From a virus: 64,000 bases of DNA. The stretch is from IMG/VR virus record IMGVR_UViG_3300028830_000319, positions 9,110-73,109 of that record. One strand, given 5' to 3'. The notes under the pieces are model-generated. The model was not told where the DNA came from. It did no database searches and saw only the letters and a program-made list of their open reading frames with translations. The first letter of the stretch is position 1, and every line of letters starts with the position of its first letter. Below are positions 3,071 to 56,167 of the stretch, piece after piece. A program made the position numbers and the translations under genes.

Positions 3071-3071
3071 T

Positions 3072-8614: not shown

Positions 8615-8621
8615 GGTTCAA

Positions 8622-9836: not shown

Positions 9837-9859
9837 ACATTCCCCCTGCGTTTATCGGT

Positions 9860-10342
9860 CTACGTTTGCGTGCCGAAGACGCCGGAGTTGTTACAGAACA
9901 GGCGTTGACGCATCGGCACGACGCGCAGGTCAGGCGCGTACAAGATCCCGACCGGGAATCCTTCCGCCAAAATCGCCTTGGGGTGCGTCTGCGAGGCCGG
10001 AGCGCTCGCTGCAGGGGTACCCGCGACGGCGGTCATCACCAGAGAGCCGGCCATGGCCGACAGCAGCCGGCCGACAACGCCTTGCGTCAGATACGAGCTA
10101 CCATAGGGCCACAACAGGCCAGCCGCGCCGGCCGCATTATGCTCGATCAGCGTGTAGCTGGCGAACATAGCCATGCCGCGGAAGATCCCGTCTTGGGGAG
10201 TGTCGGCGAACGTGTCGCCGGTCACGGGTTTGGCAAACACCTGGTGCTCGATGGTCAAGCCGGCCGCCGTCTGACCGATGGAGAGCGCGGAGCCAGCCGG
10301 CGCCGTGTACGTACCGGTGTACTGACCTGCAAGAAATCCCAT
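9860..10342 (-). CDS. Putative major tail tube protein
   Basis: 160 aa, beta-rich, lies between the tail-completion and tape-measure-like genes. Confidence 0.55.
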   Translation of the reverse strand: MGFLAGQYTGTYTAPAGSALSIGQTAAGLTIEHQVFAKPVTGDTFADTPQDGIFRGMAMFASYTLIEHNAAGAAGLLWPYGSSYLTQGVVGRLLSAMAGSLVMTAVAGTPAASAPASQTHPKAILAEGFPVGILYAPDLRVVPMRQRLFCNNSGVFGTQT

Positions 10343-10357
10343 GGTGTATCGACCTCA

Positions 10358-10807
10358 CTATTTAATGGGTACAGGCGTGGTGATGGGCTGACCAAGCACG
10401 CGAAACATCGGGATCCCAAGCTTTTCGGCCGCGTCCAGGCAGCCCGGGCAATTCGCCTGCGCTGGGCTATCCGTGGCGGCTTCACCGTTGGATGGCGTTG
10501 CCAAGTGATCGCGCGACTTGTCGCAGGCTAAGCGATAGCGAGCAAACTGGCCTGGGATCGGCCCCTTTGGGTCTGGAATTAGCAGATGCACAAGCACGCG
10601 CTTTTGCACATGCGGATAGCCGATAGATCCGCATTTCGGGCAGACCGGCCCATCGGCTGGGAACGCGAAGTCACGTCGCTTTGGCGGTCGGCAACCAGGG
10701 TTCAGGCAGACCCAAACCGTCGGCTGCTTGGTGGTCTGGTCAGGATGCACCACGATCTCGCCCATGTTGTCCGATGGCGGATTGTAGGGGTCGAATTCTT
10801 GGCTCAT
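10358..10807 (-). CDS. Cys-rich putative Zn-binding protein in the tail operon
   Basis: CLNPGC, CPKCG, ACD...H, CPGC. Confidence 0.55.
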   Translation of the reverse strand: MSQEFDPYNPPSDNMGEIVVHPDQTTKQPTVWVCLNPGCRPPKRRDFAFPADGPVCPKCGSIGYPHVQKRVLVHLLIPDPKGPIPGQFARYRLACDKSRDHLATPSNGEAATDSPAQANCPGCLDAAEKLGIPMFRVLGQPITTPVPIK

Positions 10808-11379
10808 GTCAATTTCAACCTTTCTGGGCCCTTGAACATCGTCTGGATCCGCCGCGCGCCGGAGTATCTGGCGATCCGCTTCAGCCCGGCGCGCTCTTCG
10901 CCGTGATGTCCGGCAAAATATTCCGCGCCAACCATGGCTGGAGTCGACAGTCCCGCGAACTTTGCTGGTTCGGAGAATCCTTGTCGAAACGGTCCGCTCA
11001 GGCTAGATGTTTCGTCGCAATAGAGACTCGCCGCGTTGATCAGGTCGTAGTCAAAATGGATCTCCGCGCGGATGAGTTTGTGGATCGTGTTTAAACCGGT
11101 GATCTCGTCGAGCATCAATCCGCGGCTGCGGTCACGTGGCAAGCGCGGCGCACGGTTCACCACCGCCACGGCAAATTCAACAATCTCGTCCAGCACTCCG
11201 CCGCTTTTCTGGTTGTGGGGACCTGGCGTCACGGGCCCGGGGATAATCGACACGTAAAAATGGCTAGCGATGGCCGGCGGAAGCTCGTCGTATTCGACCG
11301 CGCACTGCGTGGCCGTGTACCCCAGCGCCGTGCGGAGCCGGTCTTGTACAGCCAGCAATAGTGCCGATTGACTATCCAT
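10804..11379 (-). CDS. Putative tail completion/terminator protein
   Basis: ATG overlaps the upstream stop (TAATG); position after the neck gene. Confidence 0.55.
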   Translation of the reverse strand: MDSQSALLLAVQDRLRTALGYTATQCAVEYDELPPAIASHFYVSIIPGPVTPGPHNQKSGGVLDEIVEFAVAVVNRAPRLPRDRSRGLMLDEITGLNTIHKLIRAEIHFDYDLINAASLYCDETSSLSGPFRQGFSEPAKFAGLSTPAMVGAEYFAGHHGEERAGLKRIARYSGARRIQTMFKGPERLKLT

Positions 11380-12215
11380 TACGCCGCTCCGTCCCGGTAA
11401 ACGTCCTCGCTCGCAATCTTGAGCGCGGCCAAGCCGACCCCCAGCCAACGCTGCCACCAAACGGCCGGGATTTGAGCAGCGTTGTCCGGAAAGATCTGCC
11501 GCTTCGGCAGTCTGCCAGGCACGCCATTGTTGTGGGCCCCGGCCCGCGGGTCGTTGGTGCCAACAATAATGCGAGCGCCTTGAGCATCGAACACCTGCTT
11601 GTCGCCGCCTTCGCCCGACGGTTTGGAATAGGCCATTGCCGGCGGCGTGCCACTCAGCACACCCGGCGACAGGCTATTGAGCATGACTCCGGTGTCTCTC
11701 AAAATCTGGACCTTCCGCGATCCATAAACCTCCAGCTTCGTCTGGGCGCCTTCCCGCTTGATTACTGCCCAGGCGATCTGCGCTGCACGTGCCTTTGCCT
11801 CTTTGACTGGCAGTGACAGCGACAATCGATTGAAGTTGCGGGCGAAGATCTGCTTCCATCGCTCGAGCTGCGCCTTGGTGAGCAACCCGCGATTGCCCCC
11901 CGGGGCGAATGCATGCCCGCGCCCGAGGCCCGCGGCCTTTTTGAGCGTCGCCTGTTCTCGCGGTCCAAATCGTCGCGAATAGGCCTTGGTCTTGGGAGAC
12001 AAATCGGGCCACGAGACCCCCATTTCGTCCGTTCCACCGTCCGCCTTGGTCACATAGGCGTCTTTGATATCGCTCAAGGCCGCGAAGCCAAGCGACAATA
12101 AGAAGCCCTCGCGCACCTGGTGCGAATCCTGCTGACGGCCAACGAGGATATCGCGCAGCCGATAGGCCAGGCGAATCACGTCCCGTCGGCTGCCTTGGAA
12201 ATACACCGGTGCCAT
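11379..12215 (-). CDS. Virion morphogenesis/neck protein (Mu gpG-like)
   Basis: ILRDTGVMLNSL, IIVGTNDPRAGAHNNG, LPKRQIF motifs. Confidence 0.75.
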   Translation of the reverse strand: MAPVYFQGSRRDVIRLAYRLRDILVGRQQDSHQVREGFLLSLGFAALSDIKDAYVTKADGGTDEMGVSWPDLSPKTKAYSRRFGPREQATLKKAAGLGRGHAFAPGGNRGLLTKAQLERWKQIFARNFNRLSLSLPVKEAKARAAQIAWAVIKREGAQTKLEVYGSRKVQILRDTGVMLNSLSPGVLSGTPPAMAYSKPSGEGGDKQVFDAQGARIIVGTNDPRAGAHNNGVPGRLPKRQIFPDNAAQIPAVWWQRWLGVGLAALKIASEDVYRDGAA

Positions 12216-12225
12216 AGTTTCACGA

Positions 12226-12729
12226 TCACGGGTAAACGCCGCCCAGGTTTGTATCGAAGTTCTGGCCGCGGACGCTCGGCGCCGGGCTGCTGGTCGTTTG
12301 CTGCACGCGAATCTTGGACTGCACGTATCGTCGATCGACTCGCAGGTTGCTCATGGTCGGACTCAAATCTCCCGACATGGGCACGCCAGGCAGACGGAGC
12401 TGGCCGTCGAGAATCGCCTGGAGCTTGGCCATGATCCGATCGAACTCGATTTGCATCGCCTCGGGCGCGGGATTGCCCCGGGTAATGCAAAGGAAGTAGC
12501 CCGAGAGCTCGATCGCCCATCGCTTGATCAGGTCGGAGCCCGCCAGCGCAGCGCTGCTGTACCACTGTCGCGCATAGATGTCGATCTCGTCCGACCCCTG
12601 GTTGATTGCATCCGCCACGACGTTGTCATCGCCCGTGCCGTCATCGTCGTGGTCCGACCATTCCAGCACGGCGGCGGCGGAGTATTTCCGCTCCAGATCC
12701 GCCTTCGTGCAATAGGCCGTGACGGGCAT
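12226..12729 (-). CDS. Head-tail connector (Mu gp36/DUF1320-like)
   Basis: YCTKADLERKY, AINQGSDEIDIYARQWY, YFLCITRG. Confidence 0.8.
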   Translation of the reverse strand: MPVTAYCTKADLERKYSAAAVLEWSDHDDDGTGDDNVVADAINQGSDEIDIYARQWYSSAALAGSDLIKRWAIELSGYFLCITRGNPAPEAMQIEFDRIMAKLQAILDGQLRLPGVPMSGDLSPTMSNLRVDRRYVQSKIRVQQTTSSPAPSVRGQNFDTNLGGVYP

Positions 12730-34647: not shown

Positions 34648-35076
34648 ATGGAATGCACTCCCGTCACGGATGACCAACTGAATCAACTGTTATGGACCTC
34701 GCGACAGGCAGAGGCCGCGGCAGGATGGCCGGCAGGTACGGTCGAATCCTTGGTGATGGAGCTGCGGAGTAGGAGAAAGGCGGCCGAGTCGGAATCGAAC
34801 GCGAAAGCAACGAAAGCGGAAAGAGATGCTGCCTTTGAGACTGCTTGGCCGGCGGCCGTGACCGTCGCTCAGCGTGGCGGTGAATTTACTTCGGAACATA
34901 TCTGGAGAGAGATCAAAGCCCGGGGAATCTCAATCGAGAAGACCAAGGCCGTCATGCTCCGGATCGTCAATAAGCTCGTGAGGGACGGATATGCACGGTC
35001 TGTGAATGGCAAGCGCACCAAGGGCGGACCTGAATCGAGACGTGGGACAGTGAATGTTTATCGAGGGATTTCGTAA
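34648..35076 (+). CDS. Hypothetical protein, possible winged helix at the C-terminus
   Basis: FTSEHIW...RIVNKLVRDGY. Confidence 0.55.
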   Translation: MECTPVTDDQLNQLLWTSRQAEAAAGWPAGTVESLVMELRSRRKAAESESNAKATKAERDAAFETAWPAAVTVAQRGGEFTSEHIWREIKARGISIEKTKAVMLRIVNKLVRDGYARSVNGKRTKGGPESRRGTVNVYRGIS

Positions 35077-35261
35077 TGGCACCGAAGATCAACCGTCAAG
35101 CCGGCTTGATGACCCATGTCGAACTAGCAAAGCATCTGGGCGTCTCGAAATGCCGTGTTCAGCAGCTCGAGCGCCGGGCTTTGGCGAAAGTGCGCAGCGC
35201 TATCGAACGCGAGGCGCGACTTTCCAAACAGACTCCGCTTGAGTGGCTGATGGGCGAATAG
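35076..35261 (+). CDS. Stand-alone sigma-70 region 4-like HTH
   Basis: MTHVELAKHLGVSKCRVQQLERRALAKVR. Confidence 0.8.
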   Translation: MAPKINRQAGLMTHVELAKHLGVSKCRVQQLERRALAKVRSAIEREARLSKQTPLEWLMGE

Positions 35262-35287: not shown

Positions 35288-37462
35288 ATGGAGTCCGACG
35301 TGAAAGCTGAAACGCTTGAAGAATATCTCGATCTGTATGGCAGCCTGCTTGGCAAGCAAGCCAGTGCCGCCATCGATCCGCTGCACGTGCCAGGCCGAGA
35401 CAAGCCGTTGGACCTGGACATTCTCCGGCCGGCGTACCCGGCGCAGGCTCACGTCATCACGGCCTGCGTCAAAGCGTGGCGCCGGCAGAAACCGCTGATC
35501 CTAGTTGGCGATTGTGGCGTCGGAAAAACGCTCTGCTCGCAAGCCATCGTTCACGCGCACAGCGTTGGACGGAGCTACCGCGCCTTGGCCTTCGTGCCAC
35601 CACACTTGGTCGCCAAATGGAAGCGCGAAATTCTGGAAACGATACCCGCCGCCAATGTCCAAGTGCTTGAAAGCTATGCAGCGGCCGTCCGCCTGACATT
35701 TCTCCGCCGGTACCCACCGAACGTTCCGACGTGGTTCATCGTCAGCCAGAGCGTGGCCAAACTGGGAACTGGCTGGCGCAGCGTGTGGCGCGAGCAAACC
35801 CATGCCAAGGGAATCCCATGCTGCATCCGCTGCTCGGAACCCATCATGGTCAAGGACCACGAGCAACAATGCTTTGTTCCGATCAAGGTGGAAGATTTGC
35901 AGAAGCGGCAATTGTATTGCGAGGCATGCGGCGATGCGCTGTGGACCTACACCGCTCAATACGATCGCTGGCCGCTCGCCAAAATCGCACACAAGAAGCT
36001 CAGGGGTTTCTTTGACTACTTAGTGATCGATGAGGCGCACCAGGAGAAGGGGAGCGATACGGCTCAGGCCAATGCCGCCGGTGCTTTGATCGCAGCAGCA
36101 CCCAAGGTCATTGCGATGACCGGAACGCTCATCGGCGGAATGGCGGAACATTTGCGTCCGTTGCTGTTTCGGCTTGCCCCGACGAGCCTGGTGGCAGATG
36201 GCTATGGATGGTCGGACAAAATGCCGTTCAACGAGAAGTATGGACGGATCGAGAAAAAGATCACGACCAAAGAGACCAAAGGCACCCGCAATAGCCACAG
36301 CCGCGGTTCGTCGACCCGCACCGCCAAGTATCTGCGGCCTGGCGTCGTTCCGACGCTCTTCGGCGACCATCTGATAGGCACCGCGGTATTCTTGGGCCTT
36401 GAGGAAATGAGCGATTGCCTGCCGCCGCTCAATGAGCAAGTCATTCCGGTCGAAATGGATGGGGAACTGTCCTCGCAATACCGGACGATTGAAGACGCTT
36501 TGACCATCGCACTGAAACCGATGGTTGCCAAAGGCGACAAGCGCCTGCTCGGGAAAATGGTGTGGGCACTCCTGGGATACCCTGATCGCCCTTACGGCTG
36601 GGGCGAGATCGGCTATTACGAAAGGGCCGACGATTCTGACGCCCAGATCTGGGTGCCGGTGGTCACACCCAAGGATTTGGCGACCGATGTCATTCGTCCC
36701 AAGGAACAGGCGCTGATCGATTGCGTCCTGCGCGAGCATTCGGAAGGCCGGCAGTGCTGGGTATTTTCGCCCATGTCGGACAAGCGCGATGTTCTCGGTC
36801 GACTGGCTCGCCTGTTATCAGAACGTGGCCTGCGCGTGGGGGTGCTTCGATCGAACGAAGTCCCCACCAAAGATCGCGAAGCGTGGGTCCTTCGCCACGG
36901 CCGCCAGAACGATGTGATCCTATCGCATCCGCAATTGGTCGAAACCGGCTTGGACCTGTTCGACAAGGGCGGCTCGCACAACTTCTGTTCGCTGATCTTT
37001 TACCAGACCGGATACAGCCTCTTTACACTCTGGCAAGCATCGCTGCGGCATTGGCGGCTAGCTCAGACCAAAGAGTGCCGCACGTTCTTTTTCTATTACG
37101 CCGAGACAATGCAGGCCCGAGCGATGGCGCTCATGGGTAAGAAGATGGCGGCCGCCAAAGCGTTGCAGGGCAAGTTCTCGGCCGAGGGCCTGGCAGCACT
37201 TGCCGATGACGGCGAGTCGATGGCCATGGCGCTGGCCAAGAGCCTGGTGAACAAGATTGACGATCTCGATGCCAAGCGGCAATGGGACAAGATCGTGCAT
37301 TCCGCACCAGCGCCGGTGGCAGCGCCTTCAGCGATTTGCGCCGAGCCCACCGCGCCGCCGATCGTGATAAAGCCGATGAAGCCGCGTCCGCCGGTACCAT
37401 CTCCGGCCCCTGCGGCGGTTCAATTATCCCTATTTGAGCAATTCATGGGAGCAAAACGATGA
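35288..37462 (+). CDS. SNF2-like/superfamily 2 helicase
   Basis: GDCGVGKT, IDEAH, MTGT, ETGLDL, RHWRLAQ. Confidence 0.85.
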   Translation: MESDVKAETLEEYLDLYGSLLGKQASAAIDPLHVPGRDKPLDLDILRPAYPAQAHVITACVKAWRRQKPLILVGDCGVGKTLCSQAIVHAHSVGRSYRALAFVPPHLVAKWKREILETIPAANVQVLESYAAAVRLTFLRRYPPNVPTWFIVSQSVAKLGTGWRSVWREQTHAKGIPCCIRCSEPIMVKDHEQQCFVPIKVEDLQKRQLYCEACGDALWTYTAQYDRWPLAKIAHKKLRGFFDYLVIDEAHQEKGSDTAQANAAGALIAAAPKVIAMTGTLIGGMAEHLRPLLFRLAPTSLVADGYGWSDKMPFNEKYGRIEKKITTKETKGTRNSHSRGSSTRTAKYLRPGVVPTLFGDHLIGTAVFLGLEEMSDCLPPLNEQVIPVEMDGELSSQYRTIEDALTIALKPMVAKGDKRLLGKMVWALLGYPDRPYGWGEIGYYERADDSDAQIWVPVVTPKDLATDVIRPKEQALIDCVLREHSEGRQCWVFSPMSDKRDVLGRLARLLSERGLRVGVLRSNEVPTKDREAWVLRHGRQNDVILSHPQLVETGLDLFDKGGSHNFCSLIFYQTGYSLFTLWQASLRHWRLAQTKECRTFFFYYAETMQARAMALMGKKMAAAKALQGKFSAEGLAALADDGESMAMALAKSLVNKIDDLDAKRQWDKIVHSAPAPVAAPSAICAEPTAPPIVIKPMKPRPPVPSPAPAAVQLSLFEQFMGAKR

Positions 37463-37794
37463 GTGGCGAAAGCAATGCGTTCGAGAATTGGTGTGTGATC
37501 GAAATCATGGGGCACCAGCGTTTGGCCGGCTTTGTCACGGAGCAGGCTCTTGGTGGTGCGAACATGCTTCGCGTCGACGTGCCCGAGAACAATGGGATTG
37601 CTGCGTTCACAACGTTCCTTGGCGCATCCTCGATCTACCGCATGACGGTTGTCACCGAAGAGATCGCGCGTGGCGTGGCGGCGTCGATCCAAGTGCGGCC
37701 GGTATCAGCTTATGAAATGCCGAAGACCCAGCCCGCACTGCCAAGACCATTACTCGACGCCGACGACATGGATGACGACGGGCCAGGCTTTTGA
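37459..37794 (+). CDS. Conserved phage protein
   Basis: WCVIEIMGHQRLAG...RVDVP. Confidence 0.65.
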   Translation: MSGESNAFENWCVIEIMGHQRLAGFVTEQALGGANMLRVDVPENNGIAAFTTFLGASSIYRMTVVTEEIARGVAASIQVRPVSAYEMPKTQPALPRPLLDADDMDDDGPGF

Positions 37795-37842
37795 GTTGGC
37801 CTAAGCATTCGGCACTGACTTCTAGCCCAAAGGAAACAATCG

Positions 37843-38160
37843 ATGGCATCTACAAACGACGGCGGTCCGGCGTTCCCAGCGAAATCTTCCATCGTCGCGC
37901 AGATCGATGGCGGCCTTATGAATTTGCAAGACTATGGCGCAGGGCCACATCCAGGCATGTCGCTTCGTCAGTATTACGCGGCGCAGGTCTTGCCGCAGTT
38001 AGTGATGCTGTGGGGCGACGAGGACTCCCAAGGCGTTGTGCTCGCTGATCTGGAAAAACAAATCAAGCTGGACCGTTTTCGTCTTCGTGTGTGCAAGGAG
38101 GCTTTGAAATGGGCGGACGCCATGATTGCGGCTGAATTGTCAGCAAAGGAATCGGAATGA
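37843..38160 (+). CDS. Conserved phage protein (GGPAFP...GMSLRxYxAA family)
   Basis: Recognisable motif. Confidence 0.7.
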   Translation: MASTNDGGPAFPAKSSIVAQIDGGLMNLQDYGAGPHPGMSLRQYYAAQVLPQLVMLWGDEDSQGVVLADLEKQIKLDRFRLRVCKEALKWADAMIAAELSAKESE

Positions 38161-38492
38161 CCAAGTACACAGAACCTCAACTCGACACGCTTATCGCTGC
38201 GCTCAGCCTTTATGCGGAATCCCTCGAAGAATATATCGCAACTCAAAAGGATGTCCCGGCATACCGTCGCGCGCCTGATGAATTGCTGGTCTTGTTCTCT
38301 GGTCGGATCGAATTCTGTAAATCGCAGATTCGCAAATTCGGCGACCAAAGCATTTCTTTGATTATCGATGCTGCGTTCGATACGCCGGCCAAGCCTACTC
38401 CGATCAACCCCGAGCTTGCAGGCGAGATTGGCGATAACGAGCTCGTGCAACCATCTGCAAAGAAATCTCGCCGCGCCAGGAAACCATCATGA
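38157..38492 (+). CDS. Hypothetical protein
   Basis: ATGA-coupled. Confidence 0.55.
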   Translation: MTKYTEPQLDTLIAALSLYAESLEEYIATQKDVPAYRRAPDELLVLFSGRIEFCKSQIRKFGDQSISLIIDAAFDTPAKPTPINPELAGEIGDNELVQPSAKKSRRARKPS

Positions 38493-38728
38493 CCGTGCCA
38501 TTTGACGATTTGATGACGTTCCGGACCTACGAGGTTCACTACGCTCCAGAGGGAGCGGCGGATCCGGCTGCATTTAAGGGGCAGTTCTTTGGCTTCGTGT
38601 CTCCGCACCCGGGAAGCAATGTCCGGTTCATGATCTTCAAGATCGATAACGGTAGGTACTGGAGAATTCCCACTACCTCCATCACGGCAATTTATACCGT
38701 CGATCGATTCGGCGTGACCCAAGAATAA
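38489..38728 (+). CDS. Hypothetical protein
   Basis: ATGA-coupled. Confidence 0.55.
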   Translation: MTVPFDDLMTFRTYEVHYAPEGAADPAAFKGQFFGFVSPHPGSNVRFMIFKIDNGRYWRIPTTSITAIYTVDRFGVTQE

Positions 38729-38753
38729 CCATCCCCTGAAGGAAACCGTTGAT

Positions 38754-39863
38754 ATGAAAGTGACCTGTAAACGCGAGCCATTGCTGGCCGCATTTCACGC
38801 AGCCGCGGCCGTAGTGCCACATCGCAGCAGCAAGCCCGTGCTTCTCAGCGTCAAGCTGGAAGTCTCAGACGACAAAGCCGTGATGATGGCCACGGACATG
38901 GAACTCAGTATCCGCATTGAAGTCGATGGCGTTGATTGCCACGGTCACGGCGCGGCGCTGCTATCGTCTGCTCGGTTTGGCGCCATTTTGCGCGAAAGCA
39001 GCGACGAGATGCTGACCATTGAAACCGGCAAAAAGGGCGGCATCGTGATCTGCGGCGAACGCAGCGAGTTCAAGCTTCCCAGCGAGGATCCGCAAGACTA
39101 TCCCACCGTACCTGAGTTTCCCGAGAAGAAGGCGCTGACTGTGCCTGCTCGACGGCTGCGTGAAGTGATCCGCCGCACGCTCTTTGCGACGGACACCGAG
39201 AGCAGTCGCTACGCTCTGGGCGGAATCCTCTTGGAATGCGACAAGGGGGCGCTGATTGGAGTCGGCACCGATGGCCGGCGCTTGGCAAAGATGACCGTGC
39301 CGGCAACCGGCGAAGTAACTGAAGAGCCGATCCTTGGCATCGTTCCGGCGAAGGCCATGCAATTGATTGGCAGGGCATTGGCCGACGATGATGCCGACGT
39401 TCAATTGACAGCGACACTGAACAGCGTCTTATTGCACAGCCCCAAGGTCACCATCTCATCTCGCTTGGTCGAAGGTCGATTTCCAAAATGGCGGGACGTC
39501 TTTCCTAAGCGTCAGGCCATAACGATCGACCTGGCAATCGGTCCGTTTCATGCCGCCATTCGGCAGGCCGCGATTGTCACCAGCGAGGAAAGCCGCGGCA
39601 TCGACTTCAAGTTCGGCGGCGGTGTCCTGCTTCTCGCGGGCCAAGCGCCCGAGCTAGGACAGGCTCGCGTCGAACTGCCGATCGTCTACGACGGTCCGCC
39701 TCTGTCAATCTCGCTCGATCCTCGTTACCTGGCAGATTTTCTCAAGGTACTGGATCCGCAAAAGATGGTGGCCTTGGAATTGAAAGACTCAGACAGCGCC
39801 GCGGTGCTGACGACGGATGACGGGTACGGCTATGTCGTGATGCCGCTGGCCCGTGACAAATGA
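38754..39863 (+). CDS. dnaN: DNA polymerase III beta sliding clamp (phage-borne)
   Basis: ATDME, SRYALGG, GTDGRRL, RLVEGRFPKWRDV, YVVMP; 369 aa. Confidence 0.95.
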   Translation: MKVTCKREPLLAAFHAAAAVVPHRSSKPVLLSVKLEVSDDKAVMMATDMELSIRIEVDGVDCHGHGAALLSSARFGAILRESSDEMLTIETGKKGGIVICGERSEFKLPSEDPQDYPTVPEFPEKKALTVPARRLREVIRRTLFATDTESSRYALGGILLECDKGALIGVGTDGRRLAKMTVPATGEVTEEPILGIVPAKAMQLIGRALADDDADVQLTATLNSVLLHSPKVTISSRLVEGRFPKWRDVFPKRQAITIDLAIGPFHAAIRQAAIVTSEESRGIDFKFGGGVLLLAGQAPELGQARVELPIVYDGPPLSISLDPRYLADFLKVLDPQKMVALELKDSDSAAVLTTDDGYGYVVMPLARDK

Positions 39864-39904
39864 TTCGAGAAGTAGTTGTAACTCTAACCGGAAGGAATCC
39901 TGCC

Positions 39905-40279
39905 ATGCGAAAGCTGACCGAACACAAACTGAGTGGTCTCAATGAAGCGCTCAACATCACAGTGCTGGATCGTCGCGGCCCGGGGAATGCCAATCATCTT
40001 TACGAGATCGGCTGGGGGGATAACGAACATCTGGGTGAGCATAACCCCACCGTGATCAAGTTCCAGGAGGGTCCGATTCAAGAGGTCGGCGTCAACGGCA
40101 TCTCGAATGAAGCTTTGTTGGCGATCGTGTCGGATCGCTTGAACGGTTTTCAGGCCGGTGAGTTCGCCACTCCAGAGAACGAGATGGCATGGCGCCACGT
40201 CCAGGCGGCGATCCACTGGCTGCATCATCGCACGCGCGAGCGCTTGGCCCGAGGCGTCGAGGGGACCAGTCAGAAGTAG
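39905..40279 (+). CDS. tad1: Tad1-family nucleotide-signal sponge (anti-Thoeris/anti-CBASS)
   Basis: GPGNANHLY...IKFQEGP...GISNEALLAIVSDRLNGFQAGEFATPENEMA...HWLHHRTRERLARGVEGT follows Tad1 along its length as recalled. Confidence 0.85.
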   Translation: MRKLTEHKLSGLNEALNITVLDRRGPGNANHLYEIGWGDNEHLGEHNPTVIKFQEGPIQEVGVNGISNEALLAIVSDRLNGFQAGEFATPENEMAWRHVQAAIHWLHHRTRERLARGVEGTSQK

Positions 40280-40313
40280 TCAGTCCCAGAAATCGATCGA
40301 TGGAGCGCGGATC

Positions 40314-40547
40314 ATGCGGGTCAACAAGAGGTACTACGCCGTAAAGTTCGCCAACGGCACCTTTGCCGAGGTTATTCAGTCGCCGAACGTGCCGCGGCTA
40401 TTTGTGGGGCGATACGAGGCCGTTGAATGGATCAATAAGAACCGATCGAACTTCCTGCCCCAGGCCAGGCCCCGGGCGGTTCCGATTCAGTTATGCGAAC
40501 TCGTTATCCGTGCCTCTAAGAAGAAACGACCACACCATGCAACCTAA
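40314..40547 (+). CDS. Hypothetical basic protein
   Basis: RBS GGAG, 77 aa. Confidence 0.5.
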   Translation: MRVNKRYYAVKFANGTFAEVIQSPNVPRLFVGRYEAVEWINKNRSNFLPQARPRAVPIQLCELVIRASKKKRPHHAT

Positions 40548-40863
40548 AAACAGTATCGGCAAAGAGCAGGCGATCGCCCTGCATGATTCGGAGTTTTGGA
40601 AAGACATGACGTATCGGCAGCGGGCAGAGTTTCAATTGAACACTGTTGAGATGTGCATGCCTTTCGGCGTGTTTTTGGAGGCGGTTAGAGAAGCCCTAGG
40701 TCGGCCAGTGTTCGATTTCGAATTAGTCAAAAACTATGACGGCCTGATTGCTGAACTTCATGGTGTTGGCGGGCCACCGACATTGCAGCAGGTCATTGAA
40801 ATGATTCCGGCGGAAAAGCGGATCGTGATGTTTATGAAGCCGGTTGATCCGCGACGCAACTAA
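40537..40863 (+). CDS. Conserved phage protein
   Basis: AIALHDSEFW...MPFGVFLEAVREALGRPVF. Confidence 0.6.
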   Translation: MQPKNSIGKEQAIALHDSEFWKDMTYRQRAEFQLNTVEMCMPFGVFLEAVREALGRPVFDFELVKNYDGLIAELHGVGGPPTLQQVIEMIPAEKRIVMFMKPVDPRRN

Positions 40864-40909
40864 CCCCGCCACCGTCCGCGTGGCAATAACTGATGAAGGA
40901 GAGAACGAC

Positions 40910-41272
40910 ATGGCATCTACGTCACAACTTTCGTTCGGTGAATTACGCTCTGCGAACCTCCGCAGGCTACCGGAATTCAAAAACTCCCAAGGCGCAACAG
41001 CACACACGAAAAAAGATGGATCTGACTGGTCTCCGTCGCAATGGTTTCAGGCGATGGCCGGCGAAGTCGGTGAATACGCGAACATCCGAAAAAAGTTTGA
41101 GCGCGGCGACATCGACTTACAGGAGTTCCATCGTTTGGCGCGACGCGAGCTGGCTGACATCGCGACATATCTTGACCTTCTCGCGTTTCAGATCGGCGTT
41201 GATCTTGGAGAGGCCGTTGTCGAGAAGTTCAACGAAGTGAGCGACCGCGTCGGTAGCTCCGTAAAACTTTAG
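40910..41272 (+). CDS. MazG-like nucleotide pyrophosphohydrolase
   Basis: GEVGEYANIRKK...ELADIATYLDLLA...LGEAVVEKFN. Confidence 0.85.
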   Translation: MASTSQLSFGELRSANLRRLPEFKNSQGATAHTKKDGSDWSPSQWFQAMAGEVGEYANIRKKFERGDIDLQEFHRLARRELADIATYLDLLAFQIGVDLGEAVVEKFNEVSDRVGSSVKL

Positions 41273-41336
41273 ACCAGCAATCCCACCACTTGTAGACCGA
41301 GGCCTGGGGGAATATCCAAACAAAGGAGAAAACGAC

Positions 41337-41660
41337 ATGGCACGATTTAGAACAAAGCCCTGCGAGATTGGGGCAATCACGTTTGATGAGCTTGTCCAGT
41401 ATGGGCGAGACCACGGAGCGAACATTGTCAACGGGATGCCGTGGTCATTCGATTACGCCACCGTCCACGTTGATGACAAAGGAAATGCTAACCACCACAT
41501 TTGGTCGATCACGCACGAGAACGACGATTGCTACCTGATACCGACGCTAGAAGGCATCATGAAGATGGGCCGTGACGACCTGCTTATCACTGGTCTGAAA
41601 GGAGAGATTTACCCCTGCAAGCGCGAAATCTTTTCCATGAAATACGAGGCCGTGAACTAA
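41337..41660 (+). CDS. Conserved phage protein (KPxxIxA...IPTLEG...GxKGEIYPCK family)
   Basis: Motif recognition; function uncertain. Confidence 0.75.
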   Translation: MARFRTKPCEIGAITFDELVQYGRDHGANIVNGMPWSFDYATVHVDDKGNANHHIWSITHENDDCYLIPTLEGIMKMGRDDLLITGLKGEIYPCKREIFSMKYEAVN

Positions 41661-41720
41661 CCCCGCAACCCCGCCCCGCGTGAACCGAGGCGGGTGAAAT
41701 GGCACGAAGGAGAAAACTAC

Positions 41721-42026
41721 ATGGCACGATTTAAGCGAGTCACGAATTTTTACGACTGCAATGATCCTGGCGACGGCTTGTGGTCTGGTACTGCCAGCAA
41801 TCCTGATGGGCCAACTGCATATCTAACTTTTCGATGCCCATGTGGATGCGGCATTCGTGCTGGGATTCGCGTCGCAAGAGACCCGGCTGCACCAGAAAAG
41901 GAACCGTGGTCGTGGAACGGCGACCTTGAAAAACCAACAACAACACCGAGCATCAGAATCTTTGACGTAGACGGCAAAGAACATTGGCACGGCTACCTTA
42001 CGGATGGCGTTTTTAAAAGCTGTTAA
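41721..42026 (+). CDS. DUF6527-like metal-binding protein
   Basis: CPCGCG, WSWNGDLEKPTTTPSI, HWHGYLTDG. Confidence 0.75.
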   Translation: MARFKRVTNFYDCNDPGDGLWSGTASNPDGPTAYLTFRCPCGCGIRAGIRVARDPAAPEKEPWSWNGDLEKPTTTPSIRIFDVDGKEHWHGYLTDGVFKSC

Positions 42027-42044
42027 TCGAATAAAGGACTAAGT

Positions 42045-42245
42045 ATGGCCTGCAAGGTGCGATGCATCATCAGTATCTGGTCGGGTGCAACAAGGCACGG
42101 ATGGTCGATTAGGGCGCGGAATATCAATGGCCGTTGTCTCGCGATTTGCATTCCGCCAGGAGGGAGAGATTACGCTAGTCGCCGTGGTGCAATTCGTGCC
42201 GCCCGCAAGGTCGTCCAGGAAATGGGATGGAAGTGCGTGCATTAA
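42045..42245 (+). CDS. Hypothetical basic protein
   Basis: RBS AAGGA; stop is the start of a spacer repeat. Confidence 0.45.
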   Translation: MACKVRCIISIWSGATRHGWSIRARNINGRCLAICIPPGGRDYASRRGAIRAARKVVQEMGWKCVH

Positions 42246-42287
42246 CAGCAACCCACAACGCCCGGCGAACCGGGGGAGGGAGAGGCG

Positions 42288-42455
42288 ATGGCCATCACGC
42301 CGAAGGAACGCGACCAGCTTGCAGAGTTGAATCGAGCTATCGAATTGGCCAAGCAGGACATCTGTCCAAAGTGTGGCGGCGAATTAGATACCGGCTGGGA
42401 ATGCAATAAGTGCGGCTTCGATGCGATGGTGCTGGTCAATCCTAGAGATAACTGA
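42288..42455 (+). CDS. Small Zn-ribbon protein (55 aa; not in the ORF track)
   Basis: CPKCGGELDTGWECNKCG; RBS GGAGGGAG. Confidence 0.65.
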   Translation: MAITPKERDQLAELNRAIELAKQDICPKCGGELDTGWECNKCGFDAMVLVNPRDN

Positions 42456-42481
42456 CGCCCGACGAACCGGAAGGGGAAAGC

Positions 42482-42739
42482 ATGGCAAGCCCAGCAGAAA
42501 AAATAGCCGCCAAGAAAAAGCCACGATCTCTCAAGGCTGCGAGGTCTACCGTCCATCGGTGTGAGATTCGCAAGCTGCGGCATGGCCTTCGGCTGACGAT
42601 CAAGGACATCGCGGACCATACCGGTCTGTCGTGCGCCGGATTGCATGCGATCGAAAACGGTGCCGAAGTCACGCTGTCGTCTATGCGGAAGATACAGAAG
42701 TTCTTTGAATTGCCGCTGGATCAAATCTGGCCGCAGTAG
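42482..42739 (+). CDS. XRE-family HTH protein
   Basis: LTIKDIADHTGLSCAGLHAIENG. Confidence 0.85.
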   Translation: MASPAEKIAAKKKPRSLKAARSTVHRCEIRKLRHGLRLTIKDIADHTGLSCAGLHAIENGAEVTLSSMRKIQKFFELPLDQIWPQ

Positions 42740-42749
42740 GAGCTACAAA

Positions 42750-43028
42750 ATGTCCGTCACAACGATCAACATGCAGTCGCATCCGGCCACCTGCTTTGGC
42801 TGTGGCGGAGATGCGACTGGCCTGAATCACGGAATCCCCGTGTATGAGGACTTGGTATTGCACAACGACTATCAAGGCGAATTGGGCGGCGCTCCGGCCT
42901 GTCAGGATTGCTTTGACGTGCAATCGAAGATGGCCAAGCCGATGACGCGAGCTGCGTTCCTGCGTGACGTTCGCTGGCATCGCAAGCGGAAACGAGTGGA
43001 ACACGTCAACAACATCTGGAACGGATAA
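42750..43028 (+). CDS. Cys-containing hypothetical protein
   Basis: CFGC...CQDC; RBS AGGAG. Confidence 0.55.
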   Translation: MSVTTINMQSHPATCFGCGGDATGLNHGIPVYEDLVLHNDYQGELGGAPACQDCFDVQSKMAKPMTRAAFLRDVRWHRKRKRVEHVNNIWNG

Positions 43029-43070
43029 CAGCAAACCCACAACGCCCGGCGAACCTGGAAGGGAGAGACG

Positions 43071-43421
43071 ATGCTATCTGAAGAAGATCGCATAAGGATG
43101 AAGCGGATACTCAGCGACAACCGAGGTCCTGGCATCCACGTGAGAAAGCGTGACATTTATTGGCTGTTGAATCGTCTTGAACAGTGCTCGCACTCAATCG
43201 CGTCGGCCAATTGTGGGTTTGCGCCATTGGATGATCTTGTGAATGCCGGTTGGGTCGTGCGAGTCCAGCAATCATCTATCGGCGGTATTTTTAGCTGTGT
43301 TGCCGAGAATAATTCGGCATTTTACCCAAGGTGGGCGCGACTTGAGCAATCCGGGCCTACAGCGTCTATGGCCGTGGAGCTGGCAAGCCAAAAAGCAAAA
43401 GACTTCGTTCTTGATAAATAA
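43071..43421 (+). CDS. Hypothetical protein
   Basis: Flanked by spacer repeats. Confidence 0.55.
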   Translation: MLSEEDRIRMKRILSDNRGPGIHVRKRDIYWLLNRLEQCSHSIASANCGFAPLDDLVNAGWVVRVQQSSIGGIFSCVAENNSAFYPRWARLEQSGPTASMAVELASQKAKDFVLDK

Positions 43422-43532
43422 CTTGATCAACGCCCGGCGAACCGCTTTTTGCACTCAACTCCAAGAGCAATTGAGGCTCTTGCACCAAAATGCCGTCCTA
43501 GTGCAATTACCCCGCGACCCTGAAAGGAATGG

Positions 43533-43760
43533 ATGATGGACGACGAACGGTTTATCTCCGAGCAAGAGCGGGTCTTGATCGAAAAGCTGTATCGCTGCCG
43601 ATTCGCGCCGGGCGGATACGACAAGCGGTTCGTGCGAGACATGCACGCCAAGCAGGGCAAAGGATCGCTAACCGAAAAGCAGCGTGGCTACCTGTCGCGA
43701 CTGGCGGTTCGGTATCGCAAGCAGTTGCAAGAATTACGCGACTTCAAAGATTGCCGCTGA
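43533..43760 (+). CDS. Hypothetical protein
   Basis: LTEKQRGYL...RYRKQL. Confidence 0.6.
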   Translation: MMDDERFISEQERVLIEKLYRCRFAPGGYDKRFVRDMHAKQGKGSLTEKQRGYLSRLAVRYRKQLQELRDFKDCR

Positions 43761-43790
43761 CGACTCGCGCTCATAGCGGCGGCCCATGAA

Positions 43791-44072
43791 ATGGAGGATG
43801 GATTAATGTTGACGCGACAGATCATCGAATGGAGAGATCCGAGAAATTCGGTCCCGCCGCCGGTTGGTCTCGTTTGCTTGATGGTCGTGTCGCTCGGAAG
43901 GCCATTCGACCAGCCGCACGAGTGCGTTATCGCTGCACTTGGGAAAAGCGGGGCGATCTATTTGGCTGGAAAAGATTATCCGTCTCACTACGAATGGGGC
44001 GACGTTCTGCGCTGGGTGCCATGCCGTGACTTACTGGCAGAAATTGGGCCACCTGGCGAACCATTTCGTTGA
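43791..44072 (+). CDS. Hypothetical protein
   Basis: IEWRDP...PP...VLRW. Confidence 0.55.
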   Translation: MEDGLMLTRQIIEWRDPRNSVPPPVGLVCLMVVSLGRPFDQPHECVIAALGKSGAIYLAGKDYPSHYEWGDVLRWVPCRDLLAEIGPPGEPFR

Positions 44073-44094
44073 CCTCAACAAAATGGTCGAACAC

Positions 44095-44240
44095 GACAGG
44101 CGCGGCGTGGACAGTGACACGCACCGGCCGCCAAAGCCGGGCACAGCCAGCGGGAAAAATGGACCGACTTAGAGGGCCGGGGACGCCCGGACTGAACTGA
44201 GGCTGTGCAAGAGTAGCAGGTGCAATTCCTGCCGCCTGAC
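44095..44240 (+). ncRNA. tRNA-like cloverleaf RNA (CCA at the anticodon position) with a 75-nt structured variable region
   Basis: Acceptor CAGGCG/CGCCTG; D-arm GCGT(G)/(C)ACGC; CCGGC-CGCCAAA-GCCGG; GCACAGCC/GGCTGTGC closing stem; T-arm GCAGG-TGCAATT-CCTGC. Confidence 0.7.
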
Positions 44241-44257
44241 TTTTTAAGGAGCTTGTT

Positions 44258-44764
44258 ATGAAACCTGTCGAAATCATCCCGATCCCCGAGCCTGTCTTGC
44301 GGGCCGCGCTCGAGTCGGTCGACCCGGGCAACGTGCTGTTGGCTTCGGACATCGATTGGGACCTCAAGTCGCCCTGTAACGATTGCCCGTTTTTGCGCAC
44401 GTCGCCGTTCCACGAGGGCGTTGCCGCTCATCTGCCGGACTATGCCGAGGCGATCGCGGATCACACTTTCGCCCATACCTGTCACAAGACCGACCGCCGG
44501 CCGAAGTGCGACGGGCCGCGCAACTGGGACGGACGGACTAAGGCCTGCGCGGGCGCCGTGATGATGCTGCTCAAGACCGGCAATGGCGTTGATCTGCAAA
44601 TACCCCTGCTCAATGCAATGCAAGCCGGCAAGCTGGACGCCGCGGACATGACCCGCCGGGCCAAGGCCGACAAACGTGTTTTCAAGTTTCGAGAAATGCT
44701 GCTGTTCTACGCGAAAGAAATGACCCGCCAGTTGGGCAAACGCCGGAAGGCAAGGAAGCGTTAG
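44258..44764 (+). CDS. Cys/His-rich conserved phage protein
   Basis: SPCNDCPF...HTCHKT...ACAG; RBS AAGGAG. Confidence 0.65.
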   Translation: MKPVEIIPIPEPVLRAALESVDPGNVLLASDIDWDLKSPCNDCPFLRTSPFHEGVAAHLPDYAEAIADHTFAHTCHKTDRRPKCDGPRNWDGRTKACAGAVMMLLKTGNGVDLQIPLLNAMQAGKLDAADMTRRAKADKRVFKFREMLLFYAKEMTRQLGKRRKARKR

Positions 44765-46015
44765 ATGATCCAAAAAGACCCCAAGTTCAAATTCGCCGAT
44801 CTGTTCTGTGGCGCTGGCGGTTTTACCAGCGGCGCGGAGAAGTCCGGCTATGCCCGCGGCGTGGTGGCCATAAATCATTGGCGGCCGGCCGTGGCCACCC
44901 ATCGAGAGAATCATCCTCACGTGCGGCATGTGTGCGCTTCAGTGGATCATGTCAATCCGAGCGACTTCGACGACTTTGGTATCAACATGGTTCTTGCCAG
45001 CCCTGAATGCGTCGGGCATTCGATTGCCCGCGGCGGACGGCCAATTTTGGATCAACGCCGCGCGACCGCGTGGTGCGTCGTGCGCTGGGCAGAAGCCAAT
45101 CGACCGAAATGGATCGTGATCGAGAACGTCAAGGAATTCGAGGCATGGGGGCCGGTCGATCGGAATGGCCGCAAGATCAAAGAGCGGGAGGGAGAAATAT
45201 TTCAAGCATGGATCCAGGCGTTGCGGGCGTGCGGCTACCACGTCGAGTGGCAAAAGCTGAACGCTGCGAACTTTGGCGAAGCTCAGAGCCGTATCAGACT
45301 GTTCGTGATTGCACGCCGTGGGAAGACGACAAAGCCCATCAACTGGCCGCGACCATCGCACTTGCCGAGCGAATGGGTTGCAGCCGCCACGATCATCGAT
45401 TGGTCACTGCCGTTGCCTTCGATCTTCGGCCGTAAACGGCCGCTGGTGTCCAACTCGATCGACCGCATCGTATATGGCGTGCGCAAATTCTGCCGGCCTG
45501 AATGGGTAGAACCTTTCCTTGTGAAGCTGCGTGGCACGGGCAAAGCGAATTCGATTCACAAACCTGCCCCAACGATCACGGCTGGTGGAAATCATCTTGG
45601 TTTGTGCGTTCCCTTCATCGTTCCCAACTTCGGCGAGCGCGATGGACAAATACCAAGAACGCATGACGTCATGGCGCCATTCCCCACCGTGACGCCACGC
45701 GGCGCGGGCCATCTATGCGTTCCGTTCATCACGAAATACTACGGCACTGGCAAGGCCCGATCGGTCCTCGAGCCGTTGGACACTGTGACCACGCGAGACC
45801 GCTATGGCCTGGCGCTGGTCCGCGCCATGGATGATCTCGGGATATTCGACATCGGCTATCGCATGTTTTCCGTGCGAGAACTGGCGGCGGCCCAGGGGTT
45901 TGAGGCGGACTATTACCTGCACGGCACGGAGACCGAGCAGAAAAAGCAGATCGGCAATGCAGTCTCTCAGAAGACCGCCACGGCCATCATCAAAGCACTT
46001 GCGGAGGACAATTGA
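44765..46015 (+). CDS. DNA cytosine-5 methyltransferase
   Basis: DLFCGAGG, ASPEC, ENVKEF, QSRIRLF, QIGNAV. Confidence 0.92.
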   Translation: MIQKDPKFKFADLFCGAGGFTSGAEKSGYARGVVAINHWRPAVATHRENHPHVRHVCASVDHVNPSDFDDFGINMVLASPECVGHSIARGGRPILDQRRATAWCVVRWAEANRPKWIVIENVKEFEAWGPVDRNGRKIKEREGEIFQAWIQALRACGYHVEWQKLNAANFGEAQSRIRLFVIARRGKTTKPINWPRPSHLPSEWVAAATIIDWSLPLPSIFGRKRPLVSNSIDRIVYGVRKFCRPEWVEPFLVKLRGTGKANSIHKPAPTITAGGNHLGLCVPFIVPNFGERDGQIPRTHDVMAPFPTVTPRGAGHLCVPFITKYYGTGKARSVLEPLDTVTTRDRYGLALVRAMDDLGIFDIGYRMFSVRELAAAQGFEADYYLHGTETEQKKQIGNAVSQKTATAIIKALAEDN

Positions 46016-47787
46016 CCATGAACAAATTCAAGATCAGCAAAGACCTATCACTGCCTGTGGAGACCATCACCCAGGCCATTTCCATCCTTGGCCGCCGCGG
46101 CTCGGGCAAGACAAACACTGCCGTCGTGCTAGCCGAACGCATGCTGGAATGCGGCTATCCGATCGTGGTGCTGGATCCGCTGGGCGTGTGGTGGGGGCTG
46201 CGCTCGAGCTCCGACGGCAAGGGCCCTGGTTACCCAGTGATCATCTTTGGCGGCGAGCATGCGGACGTGCCGCTCCAGCCGACCGGCGGCAAGCTCGTGG
46301 CCGATTTCGTGGTCCGAGAACGGCAGCCAGTCATTCTGGACCTGTTTGGCTTCGGCGAAAACGACATGCGGCGGTTCGTAGCCGATTTCGCGACCCAGTT
46401 TTACAAGACCAATCGCGAGGCGATCCACTGGTTCGTGGACGAGGCCGACGAGTTCGCGCCGCAATCGCCCAGCGGTGGGCCCGGGGCTGCCTGCTTGGGC
46501 GCCATGCAAAACATCGTCCGCCGCGGCCGTGCCAAGGGGATCGGTGTCACGCTCATTACGCAGCGGTCCGCCGTCCTGAATAAATCGGTGCTGACCCAGA
46601 CCGAATGCTTAGTCGCGATGCAGACGACGGGCCCGCACGACCTCAAGGCGATCGACGAATGGATCAAATACCACGGCACGCCAGAGGAACGCGAGGCGAT
46701 CATGAAGTCGCTGACCAGCCTCGAGCGCGGCGACGCGTGGTTCTATAGCCCCTCGTGGCTCAAACTGCTCAAAAAGGTGCATGTCTCGGCTCGATCGACC
46801 TTTGATAGCAGCCAGACCCCCAAGGCCGGCGAAGCCCGCCGGGAGCCCAAGCGGCTGGCCGACGTCGATCTGGTACGCGTGGCCAAACAAATGGCCGCCA
46901 CTGTGGAAGAGGCCAAGGCCAACGACCCCAAGGAATTGCGCAAGCAGATTGCCGAGCTTCAGAAGCAGCTGAAAGGGCAGGGGAGCGACCCCAAAGCGCT
47001 CGAGTCGGCCGAGAGCCGCGGCGAGCAGCGCGGCCGCCAGGCGGCTCAAGCCGAGATCAAGCAATTGCGCGAGGCCGTGTGTGACCGTGAGAGCCGGCTT
47101 GCCAAGGTAGATGATCTGCTGATCAAAGCGGCAAAGCTCGCGCATCTGAACGGCGAAGCCCTTGGCCCAGTTTCGGTCAGTCCGCCCAAAGTCGTCCAGT
47201 CCGCGCGGCAAGCCCCGGCAATTACGCGGCCGGCCGCGCGGCCTATTACTGAGCCTGCTGCAGCAATTCGCCCAGACGGGTTTAATCTCAATAAGGCCCA
47301 GCAGCGCATCGTCGATTCGTTGGCTTGGCTGGAATCGATCGAGATCCGCGAGCCGTCGAACATTCAGCTTGGCGCGGTGGCACTTATCGATACCACCGGT
47401 GGCTATTTTTCGAATCTCGTTGGGCCGCTATCGACCAATGGTCTCGTGACCCGGAGCCGCGGATGTCTCTGCCTGACCGACGCCGGACGCGCGCTGGCTC
47501 AGCCAATGGAAGACGTCGCCACGCTAGACGACTATCACGAAATGCTGCGCGGCCGCCTGCGCAAGCTCAAATCAGCGGCGGGAAAATCGGTCGAGATACT
47601 GAACGTGATGATTGCGCATGCCGGCGAGGAAATGACGACCGAACAGATTGGCGCGGAAATTGGCGTTGACCATACGGGCGGATACTTCTCCAACTTGATC
47701 GGGCCGCTTTCGACTCTTGGGCTGATCAAGCGCGATCGTGGAAATGTGGCACCGACTTCGATTCTCTTCCCCGACAATCTGGCATAG
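46012..47787 (+). CDS. HerA/FtsK-like (DUF87) ATPase with coiled coil and tandem C-terminal winged helices
   Basis: GRRGSGKT, VDEADEF, RRGRAKGIG, ITQR; duplicated GGYFSNLxGPLST. Confidence 0.8.
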   Translation: MTMNKFKISKDLSLPVETITQAISILGRRGSGKTNTAVVLAERMLECGYPIVVLDPLGVWWGLRSSSDGKGPGYPVIIFGGEHADVPLQPTGGKLVADFVVRERQPVILDLFGFGENDMRRFVADFATQFYKTNREAIHWFVDEADEFAPQSPSGGPGAACLGAMQNIVRRGRAKGIGVTLITQRSAVLNKSVLTQTECLVAMQTTGPHDLKAIDEWIKYHGTPEEREAIMKSLTSLERGDAWFYSPSWLKLLKKVHVSARSTFDSSQTPKAGEARREPKRLADVDLVRVAKQMAATVEEAKANDPKELRKQIAELQKQLKGQGSDPKALESAESRGEQRGRQAAQAEIKQLREAVCDRESRLAKVDDLLIKAAKLAHLNGEALGPVSVSPPKVVQSARQAPAITRPAARPITEPAAAIRPDGFNLNKAQQRIVDSLAWLESIEIREPSNIQLGAVALIDTTGGYFSNLVGPLSTNGLVTRSRGCLCLTDAGRALAQPMEDVATLDDYHEMLRGRLRKLKSAAGKSVEILNVMIAHAGEEMTTEQIGAEIGVDHTGGYFSNLIGPLSTLGLIKRDRGNVAPTSILFPDNLA

Positions 47788-55963: not shown

Positions 55964-56167
55964 TCAGCGTTTGGCCTGTCGAAAAGGATCGCCTTTGGCT
56001 CGCACGATCGCGTTGTAAACCTCCTCGCGATGTACTGCGACGTTTGAACTTCCAGTGATTCCGAGGCGGACTTTGTCGCCGCGAATGTCGACGATCGTCA
56101 CATCGATAAGCTCATTACCTACGACGATCTTGATACGCTCTTCGACGGCTCGTGATAACACCAACAT
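55964..56167 (-). CDS. csrA: Carbon storage regulator (RNA-binding) homolog
   Basis: MLVLSR...I.VTIVDIRGDKVRLGI...VHREEVY. Confidence 0.93.
   Translation of the reverse strand: MLVLSRAVEERIKIVVGNELIDVTIVDIRGDKVRLGITGSSNVAVHREEVYNAIVRAKGDPFRQAKR

Follow-up and report, generated by a model that had tools for sequence, protein, structure and literature searches.

The 64-kb window analysed here is part of a provirus of 74.4 kb (IMG/VR record IMGVR_UViG_3300028830_000319; completeness estimate 71%). Positions are those of the window, except where the prefix G000:C1 marks a position in the record. An early/replication operon of + strand genes extends from ~31 kb to 48.5 kb and encodes a DUF6094 methyltransferase, an SNF2 helicase, the sliding clamp DnaN, a C5 methylase and a HerA-like ATPase. 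Between DnaN and the C5 methylase lie fourteen small genes (39905-44764), all in a single orientation on the + strand, and seven of the spacers that separate them, all inside 2.6 kb (40.8-43.5 kb), repeat one another. An earlier note on this DNA had sorted these spacers, which we call linkers, into two families running from a stop codon over a stem to a ribosome-binding site and start codon, and had read the segment as an integron-like array for the shuffling of counter-defence genes.

The linker repeats and their layout

Every junction of the array was re-derived in a stop-to-start table, giving three copies of family 1 and four of family 2. The family-1 word AAGGAGARAACNACATGGCA occurs three times (40896, 41323 and 41707) against 0.01 expected occurrences, and the family-2 core ACGCCCGGCGAACC, the strongest repeated word of the 64-kb window, is found exactly at 42258, 43042 and 43430 and with one mismatch at 42455. 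Motifs of both families are confined to the array within the whole 74-kb record. Alignment scores of all within-family pairs beat those of random phage segments (p <= 0.003), so that the repeats pointed out earlier are real and far above chance. The word TAACCCCGC by itself has a count that is not above chance, and the copy at 41323 does not carry it; the whole spacer still aligns weakly with that at 41658 (72%). The near identity claimed for the copies at 42243 and 43026 was borne out, with 44 of 49 columns matching and limits of homology that fall exactly on TAA and ATG. Proteins flanking the linkers show no paralogy; the neighbours are unrelated genes, as had been stated, and a simple segmental duplication was rejected on this ground.

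Linker s40861 (40861-40909, +) begins with the TAA of the gene at 40537-40863 and ends directly before the ATG of 40910. It holds a post-stop block, TAACCCCGCCACC..CCGCGTG, and a pre-start block, AAGGAGAGAACGAC, and its Shine-Dalgarno (SD) pairing is -9.2 kcal/mol. Linker s41270 (41270-41336, +) stands upstream of the gene 41337, and its SD block, AACAAAGGAGAA, is native to the family of that gene. Linker s41658 (41658-41720, +) is a mosaic whose 5' half is like s40861 and the family-2 post-stop block and whose 3' half is like s41270, with an identity to the latter that extends through ATGGCACGATTTA into the gene 41721. In family 2, linker c1 (42243-42287, +) consists of TAA, CAGCAACCCA, the core CAACGCCCGGCGAACCG and the SD block GGGGGAGGGAGAGG (SD pairing -11.5 kcal/mol), and linker c3 (43026-43070, +), its copy of 90% identity, lies upstream of the ORFan 43071-43421. 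The two other members of the family depart from the layout first given for them. Linker c2 (42449-42481, +) is a shortened copy upstream of a helix-turn-helix (HTH) gene, with a core that has one mismatch and overlaps the TGA at 42453-42455; it does belong to family 2, but its TAAC is not a stop, since these letters are read in frame as GAT AAC and the true stop is that TGA. Linker c4 (43419-43532, +) shares with the family TAAC and the 17-nt core (43428-43444) only. Behind the core, the next ~90 nt are unrelated to the other linkers and contain a 7-bp hairpin (43462-43482) and a weak SD, and the start codon that had been thought to adjoin it lies 90 nt further on. Six spacers thus abut a start codon and c4 does not. 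The family-1 block AAGGAGAnAACnAC directly abuts ATG, and 3-4 nt separate the family-2 SD block from it.

Multiple and pairwise alignment of the seven spacers gave a common scaffold of TAAC, GCAACCC, CGCCCnGCG, (T)GAACCG, an SD block and ATGGCn. The scaffold comprises a post-stop module (TAAC..GCAACCC..CGCCCnGCG..GAACCG) that is common to both families and a pre-start module that comes in two types, AAGGAGAAAACnAC and GGGAGAGnCG, with a strong SD at fixed spacing and then ATGGCn. Across the families, s41658 and c1 match in collinear blocks (37 of 56 columns), and four of the twelve cross-family pairs fall below p = 0.05 (p 0.003-0.04), where ~0.6 would be expected. Both sets of repeats stand, and it is their separateness that is in doubt: the alignments make it probable, although they do not prove, that families 1 and 2 share descent as one diverged linker family.

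Probable copying of the linkers as DNA

The likeness reaches beyond the SD to whole spacers, and the homology is cut sharply at the stop and start codons. In the mosaic s41658 the 5' part matches s40861 (p = 0.0007) and the 3' part matches s41270. The genes 41337 and 41721 have 29 of 30 nt in common, from the SD through ATGGCACGATTTA with codons 1-4 included, in agreement with the earlier observation that identity reaches into the first codons. The initiation region and first four codons (MARF) of 41337 appear to have been grafted onto the unrelated gene 41721, because the N-terminus MARFRKKP is native to the 41337 family, because the SD block AACAAAGGAGAA is kept upstream of the nearest homologue of 41337 (70% identity, locus L103), and because none of the 12 DUF6527 homologues nearest to 41721 starts with MARF, their alignment beginning at KRV. 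The ORFan 43071-43421 found only itself among 5.8 billion proteins, and a second contig that carries it is 100% identical. It lies between direct repeats of the family-2 core in c3 and c4, a layout such as the entry of a gene by recombination inside a linker would leave.

Taken together these comparisons support the view that the linkers were copied as DNA beside unrelated genes, rather than having arisen by convergence, and linkers copied in this way would thus mark sites of single-gene addition or swap. The proposal that the array is made of recombinational units keeps this part, through the mosaic s41658, the MARF graft, the differing composition of the flanking genes and the ORFan of deviant GC3 between direct repeats, and loses the integron-like part, to which we return below. 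The repeats are confined to this phage lineage, but a single duplication does not account for seven copies with graded similarity and unrelated neighbours.

The same phage (~100% identity over 37000-47000; runs X1 and X4-X6) was recovered from a bioreactor study and from an independent soil study of 2024. Contigs bridge s41270, s41658, c2, c3 and c4 with unchanged gene order, and those of run X1 break at 42285/42287, within linker c1. In the soil run X6 a contig piece matches 43036-43073 alone (38 nt, from the c3 linker through the ATG), with 204 unlike letters before it and 123 after it, and these flanks have no match in the 74-kb record or in IMG/VR. The c3 linker thus also stands between other sequences, which could come either from a co-occurring relative or from an unsampled part of this genome.

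Relatives were sought through several proteins of the operon. The route through DnaN was rejected, its matches being host chromosomal clamps of ~63% identity; the SNF2 helicase and the HerA-like ATPase led to relatives at only 28-55% identity, and the protein at 44258 gave no match. Loci reached through Tad1 had nothing of the array in common save the Tad1 gene itself. The core was at chance level in the loci of distant relatives, and a 16-mer of the spacer core gave 16 singleton matches in IMG/VR, again at chance level and with no repeat. A spacer 18-mer gave 36 single matches in JGI metagenomes, with no extended similarity, and the groups that recurred were of other organisms; a match in locus L067 was discarded as it fell in a glycosyltransferase coding region. 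Among 401 genomes of the presumed host order the core was found as 19 singletons, compared with 10 for the reversed control, and none had extended similarity.

Several of the loci reached have repeated junction motifs of their own. L028, a distantly related phage whose SNF2 helicase is 55% identical, has five copies of a ~20-nt motif, CACCACnnnAGGAGTCTCAC, directly before start codons and spread over 10 kb (1950-12260); greedy open reading frame (ORF) calling is unreliable in this high-GC sequence, which was used for motif positions only. The 41337 homologue in the phage contig L106 (90-500) is flanked on both sides by a 12-nt direct repeat, CGGGGCGGATTC. The Tad1-bearing L030 (1260-2300 and 7990-8400) has three copies of the SD-containing GAGGCGGCGAAGGGG..AGCGATG and carries GGAGCGAC on both sides of Tad1, and in the likewise Tad1-bearing L045 (7980-8420) the gene stands between two copies of the SD-containing junction motif TCCGAAGGAGA.

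Genes of the array and the host

The first gene of the array (39905-40279, +) belongs to the Tad1 family (Thoeris anti-defence 1), with E 6e-17 to the PDB Tad1 chains 8kbb and 7uav and a further match to phrog_2428, and it is not flanked by linkers. Between s40861 and s41270 lies a gene of 120 aa (40910-41272, +) with a weak MazG/dCTP-pyrophosphatase-like match, and between s41270 and s41658 one of 107 aa (41337-41660, +) from a phrog_419-like family that is widespread in phages. The recipient of the putative MARF graft (41721-42026, +) encodes a DUF6527/BubE-domain protein of 101 aa (Pfam E 1.7e-15) and has the lowest GC content at third codon positions (GC3) of the operon (0.44). A gene of 66 aa (42045-42245, +) follows behind an unrelated 18-nt spacer, and a zinc-ribbon gene of 55 aa (42288-42455, +) occupies the interval between c1 and c2. 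The unit between c2 and c3 holds two genes, an XRE-type HTH gene of 85 aa (HTH_3; 42482-42739, +), which is a candidate local regulator, and behind an unrelated 10-nt spacer a Cys-rich gene of 92 aa (42750-43028, +). The ORFan between c3 and c4 (43071-43421, +) encodes 116 aa and has a GC3 of 0.50. Across the repeat-bearing part GC3 is uneven and lower (0.44-0.71) than in flanking backbone genes (0.65-0.78), which include the SNF2 helicase, DnaN, the methyltransferase and the HerA-like gene among others. The 185-nt intergenic spacer at 44070-44257 contains no tRNA (ARAGORN) and no Rfam family.

The label of a counter-defence array is plausible for part of the region. It is borne out by the Tad1 homologue, which however lies outside the repeat-flanked units, and not by the repeat-flanked genes themselves, among which the DUF6527/BubE-like gene is a second candidate. 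The DUF6527/BubE domain is a serine protease that removes ubiquitin-like (Ubl) conjugates (bioRxiv 10.1101/2024.11.21.623953). BubE works in bacterial Bub operons, and the stand-alone phage copy at 41721 could counter Ubl-conjugating defences.

Elsewhere in the window, a protein of 61 aa (35076-35261, +) directly upstream of the SNF2 helicase consists of a sigma-70 region-4-type HTH alone (PF04545, E 8e-8) and is a possible early transcription factor. A CsrA homologue (PF02599, E 6e-17) is encoded at 56006-56167 (-; G000:C1:65115-65276), and the GGA-rich SD blocks of family 2 are conceivable targets for it. The sole match to a tyrosine recombinase (PF00589) in the 74-kb record lies left of the window at G000:C1:4111-4587, ~46 kb from the array and near the left (provirus) end of the record, and is probably the prophage integrase.

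The clamp DnaN (38754-39863, +), a DNA polymerase III beta clamp carried by the phage, is ~63% identical to the chromosomal DnaN of Pirellulales and Planctomycetia, and its gene was apparently taken up from the host lineage. Distant homologues of the Tad1-like gene are found mainly in genomes of Planctomycetaceae and Pirellulaceae. On account of these two relationships the host is probably a planctomycete of the order Pirellulales, and the phage itself, a provirus of ~74 kb, is temperate.

Roles of the linkers and known counterparts

Predicted pairing with the anti-SD, compared over 33 operon genes, is strongest at the six start-abutting linkers, with a median of -9.05 compared with -6.1 kcal/mol (one-sided Mann-Whitney p = 0.0005). 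The linkers fold no better than shuffled sequences (z from -1.2 to +1.25 over all spacers), as expected for initiation regions. Because this pairing is the strongest and the structure average or weak, the pre-start module is most simply explained as a strong translation-initiation region. The conserved stem of the earlier note was not upheld, as the hairpin CCCGG/CCGGG is a perfect 5-bp one in c1 only and is broken in c2, c3 and c4. No sigma-70-type promoter was found in 38500-45000 against 3.5 expected, by an E. coli-type consensus from which planctomycete promoters may differ, and no linker contains an intrinsic terminator or matches an Rfam family. The distance from core to ATG is 17-19 nt and therefore leaves no room for a conventional promoter. 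As to the post-stop core, it could be a protein-binding site, given the XRE-type HTH gene in the array, or an RNA site, given the CsrA of the phage and the GGA-rich SD blocks of family 2, or it could be merely the most recently shared homology.

The explanation we favour, to which we give about even chances, is that a single intercistronic linker gave rise to all seven spacers as diverged copies, spread by general recombination during gene gain. The pre-start module would serve the polycistronic mRNA as a strong, weakly structured initiation region for the gene behind it, and copying at the DNA level would have spread the linkers with each addition of a single small gene. Recombination in the linkers, through short homology or microhomology, could place a new gene between two linker copies and leave mosaic linkers, and the same homology could afterwards delete or swap genes. 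The 38-nt match of run X6 and the junction repeats of L028, L030, L045 and L106 are in favour of this explanation. Several points weigh against this explanation. The cross-family homology is just marginally significant, and the 14-17-nt core that is perfectly kept in c4 beside unrelated flanks could equally mean a protein-binding site. There is no close relative in the collections searched, so that gain and loss at the linkers could not be observed; no deletion or joint at a linker was seen in contigs of four runs from two studies, whose low depth hides rare variants; and no phage recombinase was recognised among the genes of the early region. The anti-SD of the pairing comparison is a generic bacterial sequence, which may not be that of this host.

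If the family-2 core ACGCCCGGCGAACC were a DNA operator, a repressor or the XRE-type HTH protein of the array would silence or tune the accessory genes at asymmetric sites of the same orientation, known parallels being stoperators in cluster A mycobacteriophages and, in anti-defence operons, Aca operators. Three copies of the core are identical and the fourth is one base off, although c2 and c4 have flanks that differ; all copies are on the transcribed strand directly after stop codons, a small dyad (CGCC-C-GGCG) lies inside the core, and the HTH_3 gene stands behind c2. We nonetheless consider an operator an unlikely explanation: there are four copies only, all in 1.2 kb and none elsewhere in the record, the dyad has arms of only 4 bp, no repetition of the core turned up in relatives or among the 401 genomes of the presumed host order, and family 1 and the copying of whole spacers with codons would be left unexplained. 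Were the likeness due to selection alone for the best translation-initiation or start-associated (SAS-like) sequence, without a role for recombination, this would account for a conserved family-1 block at about -16 to +13 around the start, which is near the size of a ribosome footprint, for the strongest SD pairing of the operon with low structure, and for start-associated repeats in other phages such as L028. Left unexplained are the post-stop block, conserved at 20-45 nt upstream of the SD, the 90% identity over a 49-column spacer and the core of c4, which has no adjacent start, and the motif is found only at local, adjacent genes, unlike the SAS, with their 11-19 copies genome-wide (PMC3203893). 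We hold selection alone to be unlikely.

The linkers might also give rise to separate small transcripts, either as phage-specific promoters, used by a phage-modified or phage-encoded polymerase or a sigma-like factor, or as sites of RNA processing or CsrA binding. In layout, a conserved block of ~20 nt followed directly by a G-rich SD leader resembles phage-specific promoters, and the phage encodes both the sigma-70 region 4 protein and the CsrA homologue, with GGA-rich SD blocks in family 2. This explanation is distinctly improbable in view of the lack of sigma-70-like sites, of a core-to-ATG distance that cannot hold a -10 element, a start site and an SD, of the failure to recognise any gene of single-subunit RNA polymerase size among the annotated large ORFs, and of linkers that have neither an Rfam match nor a fold signal. 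Very improbable, in our estimation, is that the 17-nt core CAACGCCCGGCGAACCG is the recognition site of a phage factor, for example the HTH protein of the array, which would guide the exchange of single-gene cassettes in a sequence-specific way, with no integron integrase involved, and make the array a platform for accessory and counter-defence genes. An integron proper, with attC-like spacers and a site-specific recombinase that moves circular cassettes, is scarcely credible. Small, promoter-less, unrelated and co-oriented genes do lie between repeated sites and the record does hold a tyrosine recombinase, but the integron reading fails because the attC motifs are missing (a regular-expression search for RYYYAAC/GTTRRRY on both strands found nothing in six of the seven spacers +/-10 nt, and a single chance-level pair in c4), because no spacer has the imperfect-palindrome fold and because the recombinase is distant and sits at the provirus end, as a prophage integrase would. 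The spacers are moreover 33-67 nt long and largely SD sequence, and no excision joints were seen in the run contigs.

The spread of one linker by general recombination, if correct, would show how phages can add or swap small accessory genes, anti-defence genes such as a Tad1 homologue included, without breaking the expression of an operon: the repeated unit is the stretch from stop to start. The mechanism is not new, as shuffling of the type of promoter-early stem-loops (PeSLs) has been known since 2010 and linker-type spacers copied at gene addition are already known from other phages. The array would extend the pattern to a planctomycete prophage and to a minimal form, a ribosome-binding linker alone with no promoter or terminator, and it would offer a clear case of an initiation region with four codons grafted onto an unrelated gene. 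Linkers taken as unit boundaries could also guide the search for new counter-defence genes.

Among known systems, integrons have in common with the array the promoter-less, unrelated and co-oriented genes between repeated sites, and differ from it in the attC signature and fold and in the adjacent IntI/attI/Pc platform, all of which the array lacks; nor does anything in the array point to site-specific exchange. In cluster A mycobacteriophages, stoperators are asymmetric sites of ~13-14 bp, tens of which are distributed genome-wide and bound by the phage repressor. Like the family-2 core they stand at gene junctions, have a length of ~13-14 bp and are oriented with transcription. The core differs in its four local copies as opposed to tens genome-wide; stoperators have been contrasted with the SAS in PMC3203893. 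The SAS/ESAS of cluster K mycobacteriophages are a 13-bp motif in 11-19 copies genome-wide, conserved across subclusters and 3-8 bp upstream of starts (PMC3203893, Pope et al. 2011). They resemble the linkers as asymmetric repeats that hold the ribosome-binding region just upstream of starts before unrelated gene families, with a suggested role in translation initiation, whereas the linkers have 3 + 4 copies in adjacent spacers only, homology over the whole spacer and an extra post-stop block, and were not found in the relatives examined.

The closest described system is that of the PeSLs of T4-type phages. These repeats span the interval from stop to start in hyperplastic ORFan regions, and by their recombination single genes are inserted, deleted and circularised (PMC2839356, Arbiol et al. 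2010; PMC4122927, Comeau et al. 2014). In both cases the cassette opens at the stop codon of one gene and closes with the SD and start codon of the following one, and the repeats are concentrated among small ORFan or accessory genes of a variable region, here with the ORFan 43071 and heterogeneous GC3. For both it is proposed that homologous recombination acts on the cassettes, so that single genes are inserted, lost or exchanged. The linkers have neither a sigma-70-like promoter nor a terminator stem-loop, the two defining parts of a PeSL, and are therefore not members of the PeSL family; their units are also shorter (33-67 nt compared with ~100 nt) and fewer (7 local copies compared with ~50), and the phage that carries them is temperate and planctomycete. 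By analogy, the linkers plausibly work like PeSLs as recombination substrates, and conserved regulatory spacers would have been the sites of the general recombination that built the array, in the manner proposed for PeSLs but here without promoter or terminator, and with no part played by site-specific capture of cassettes.

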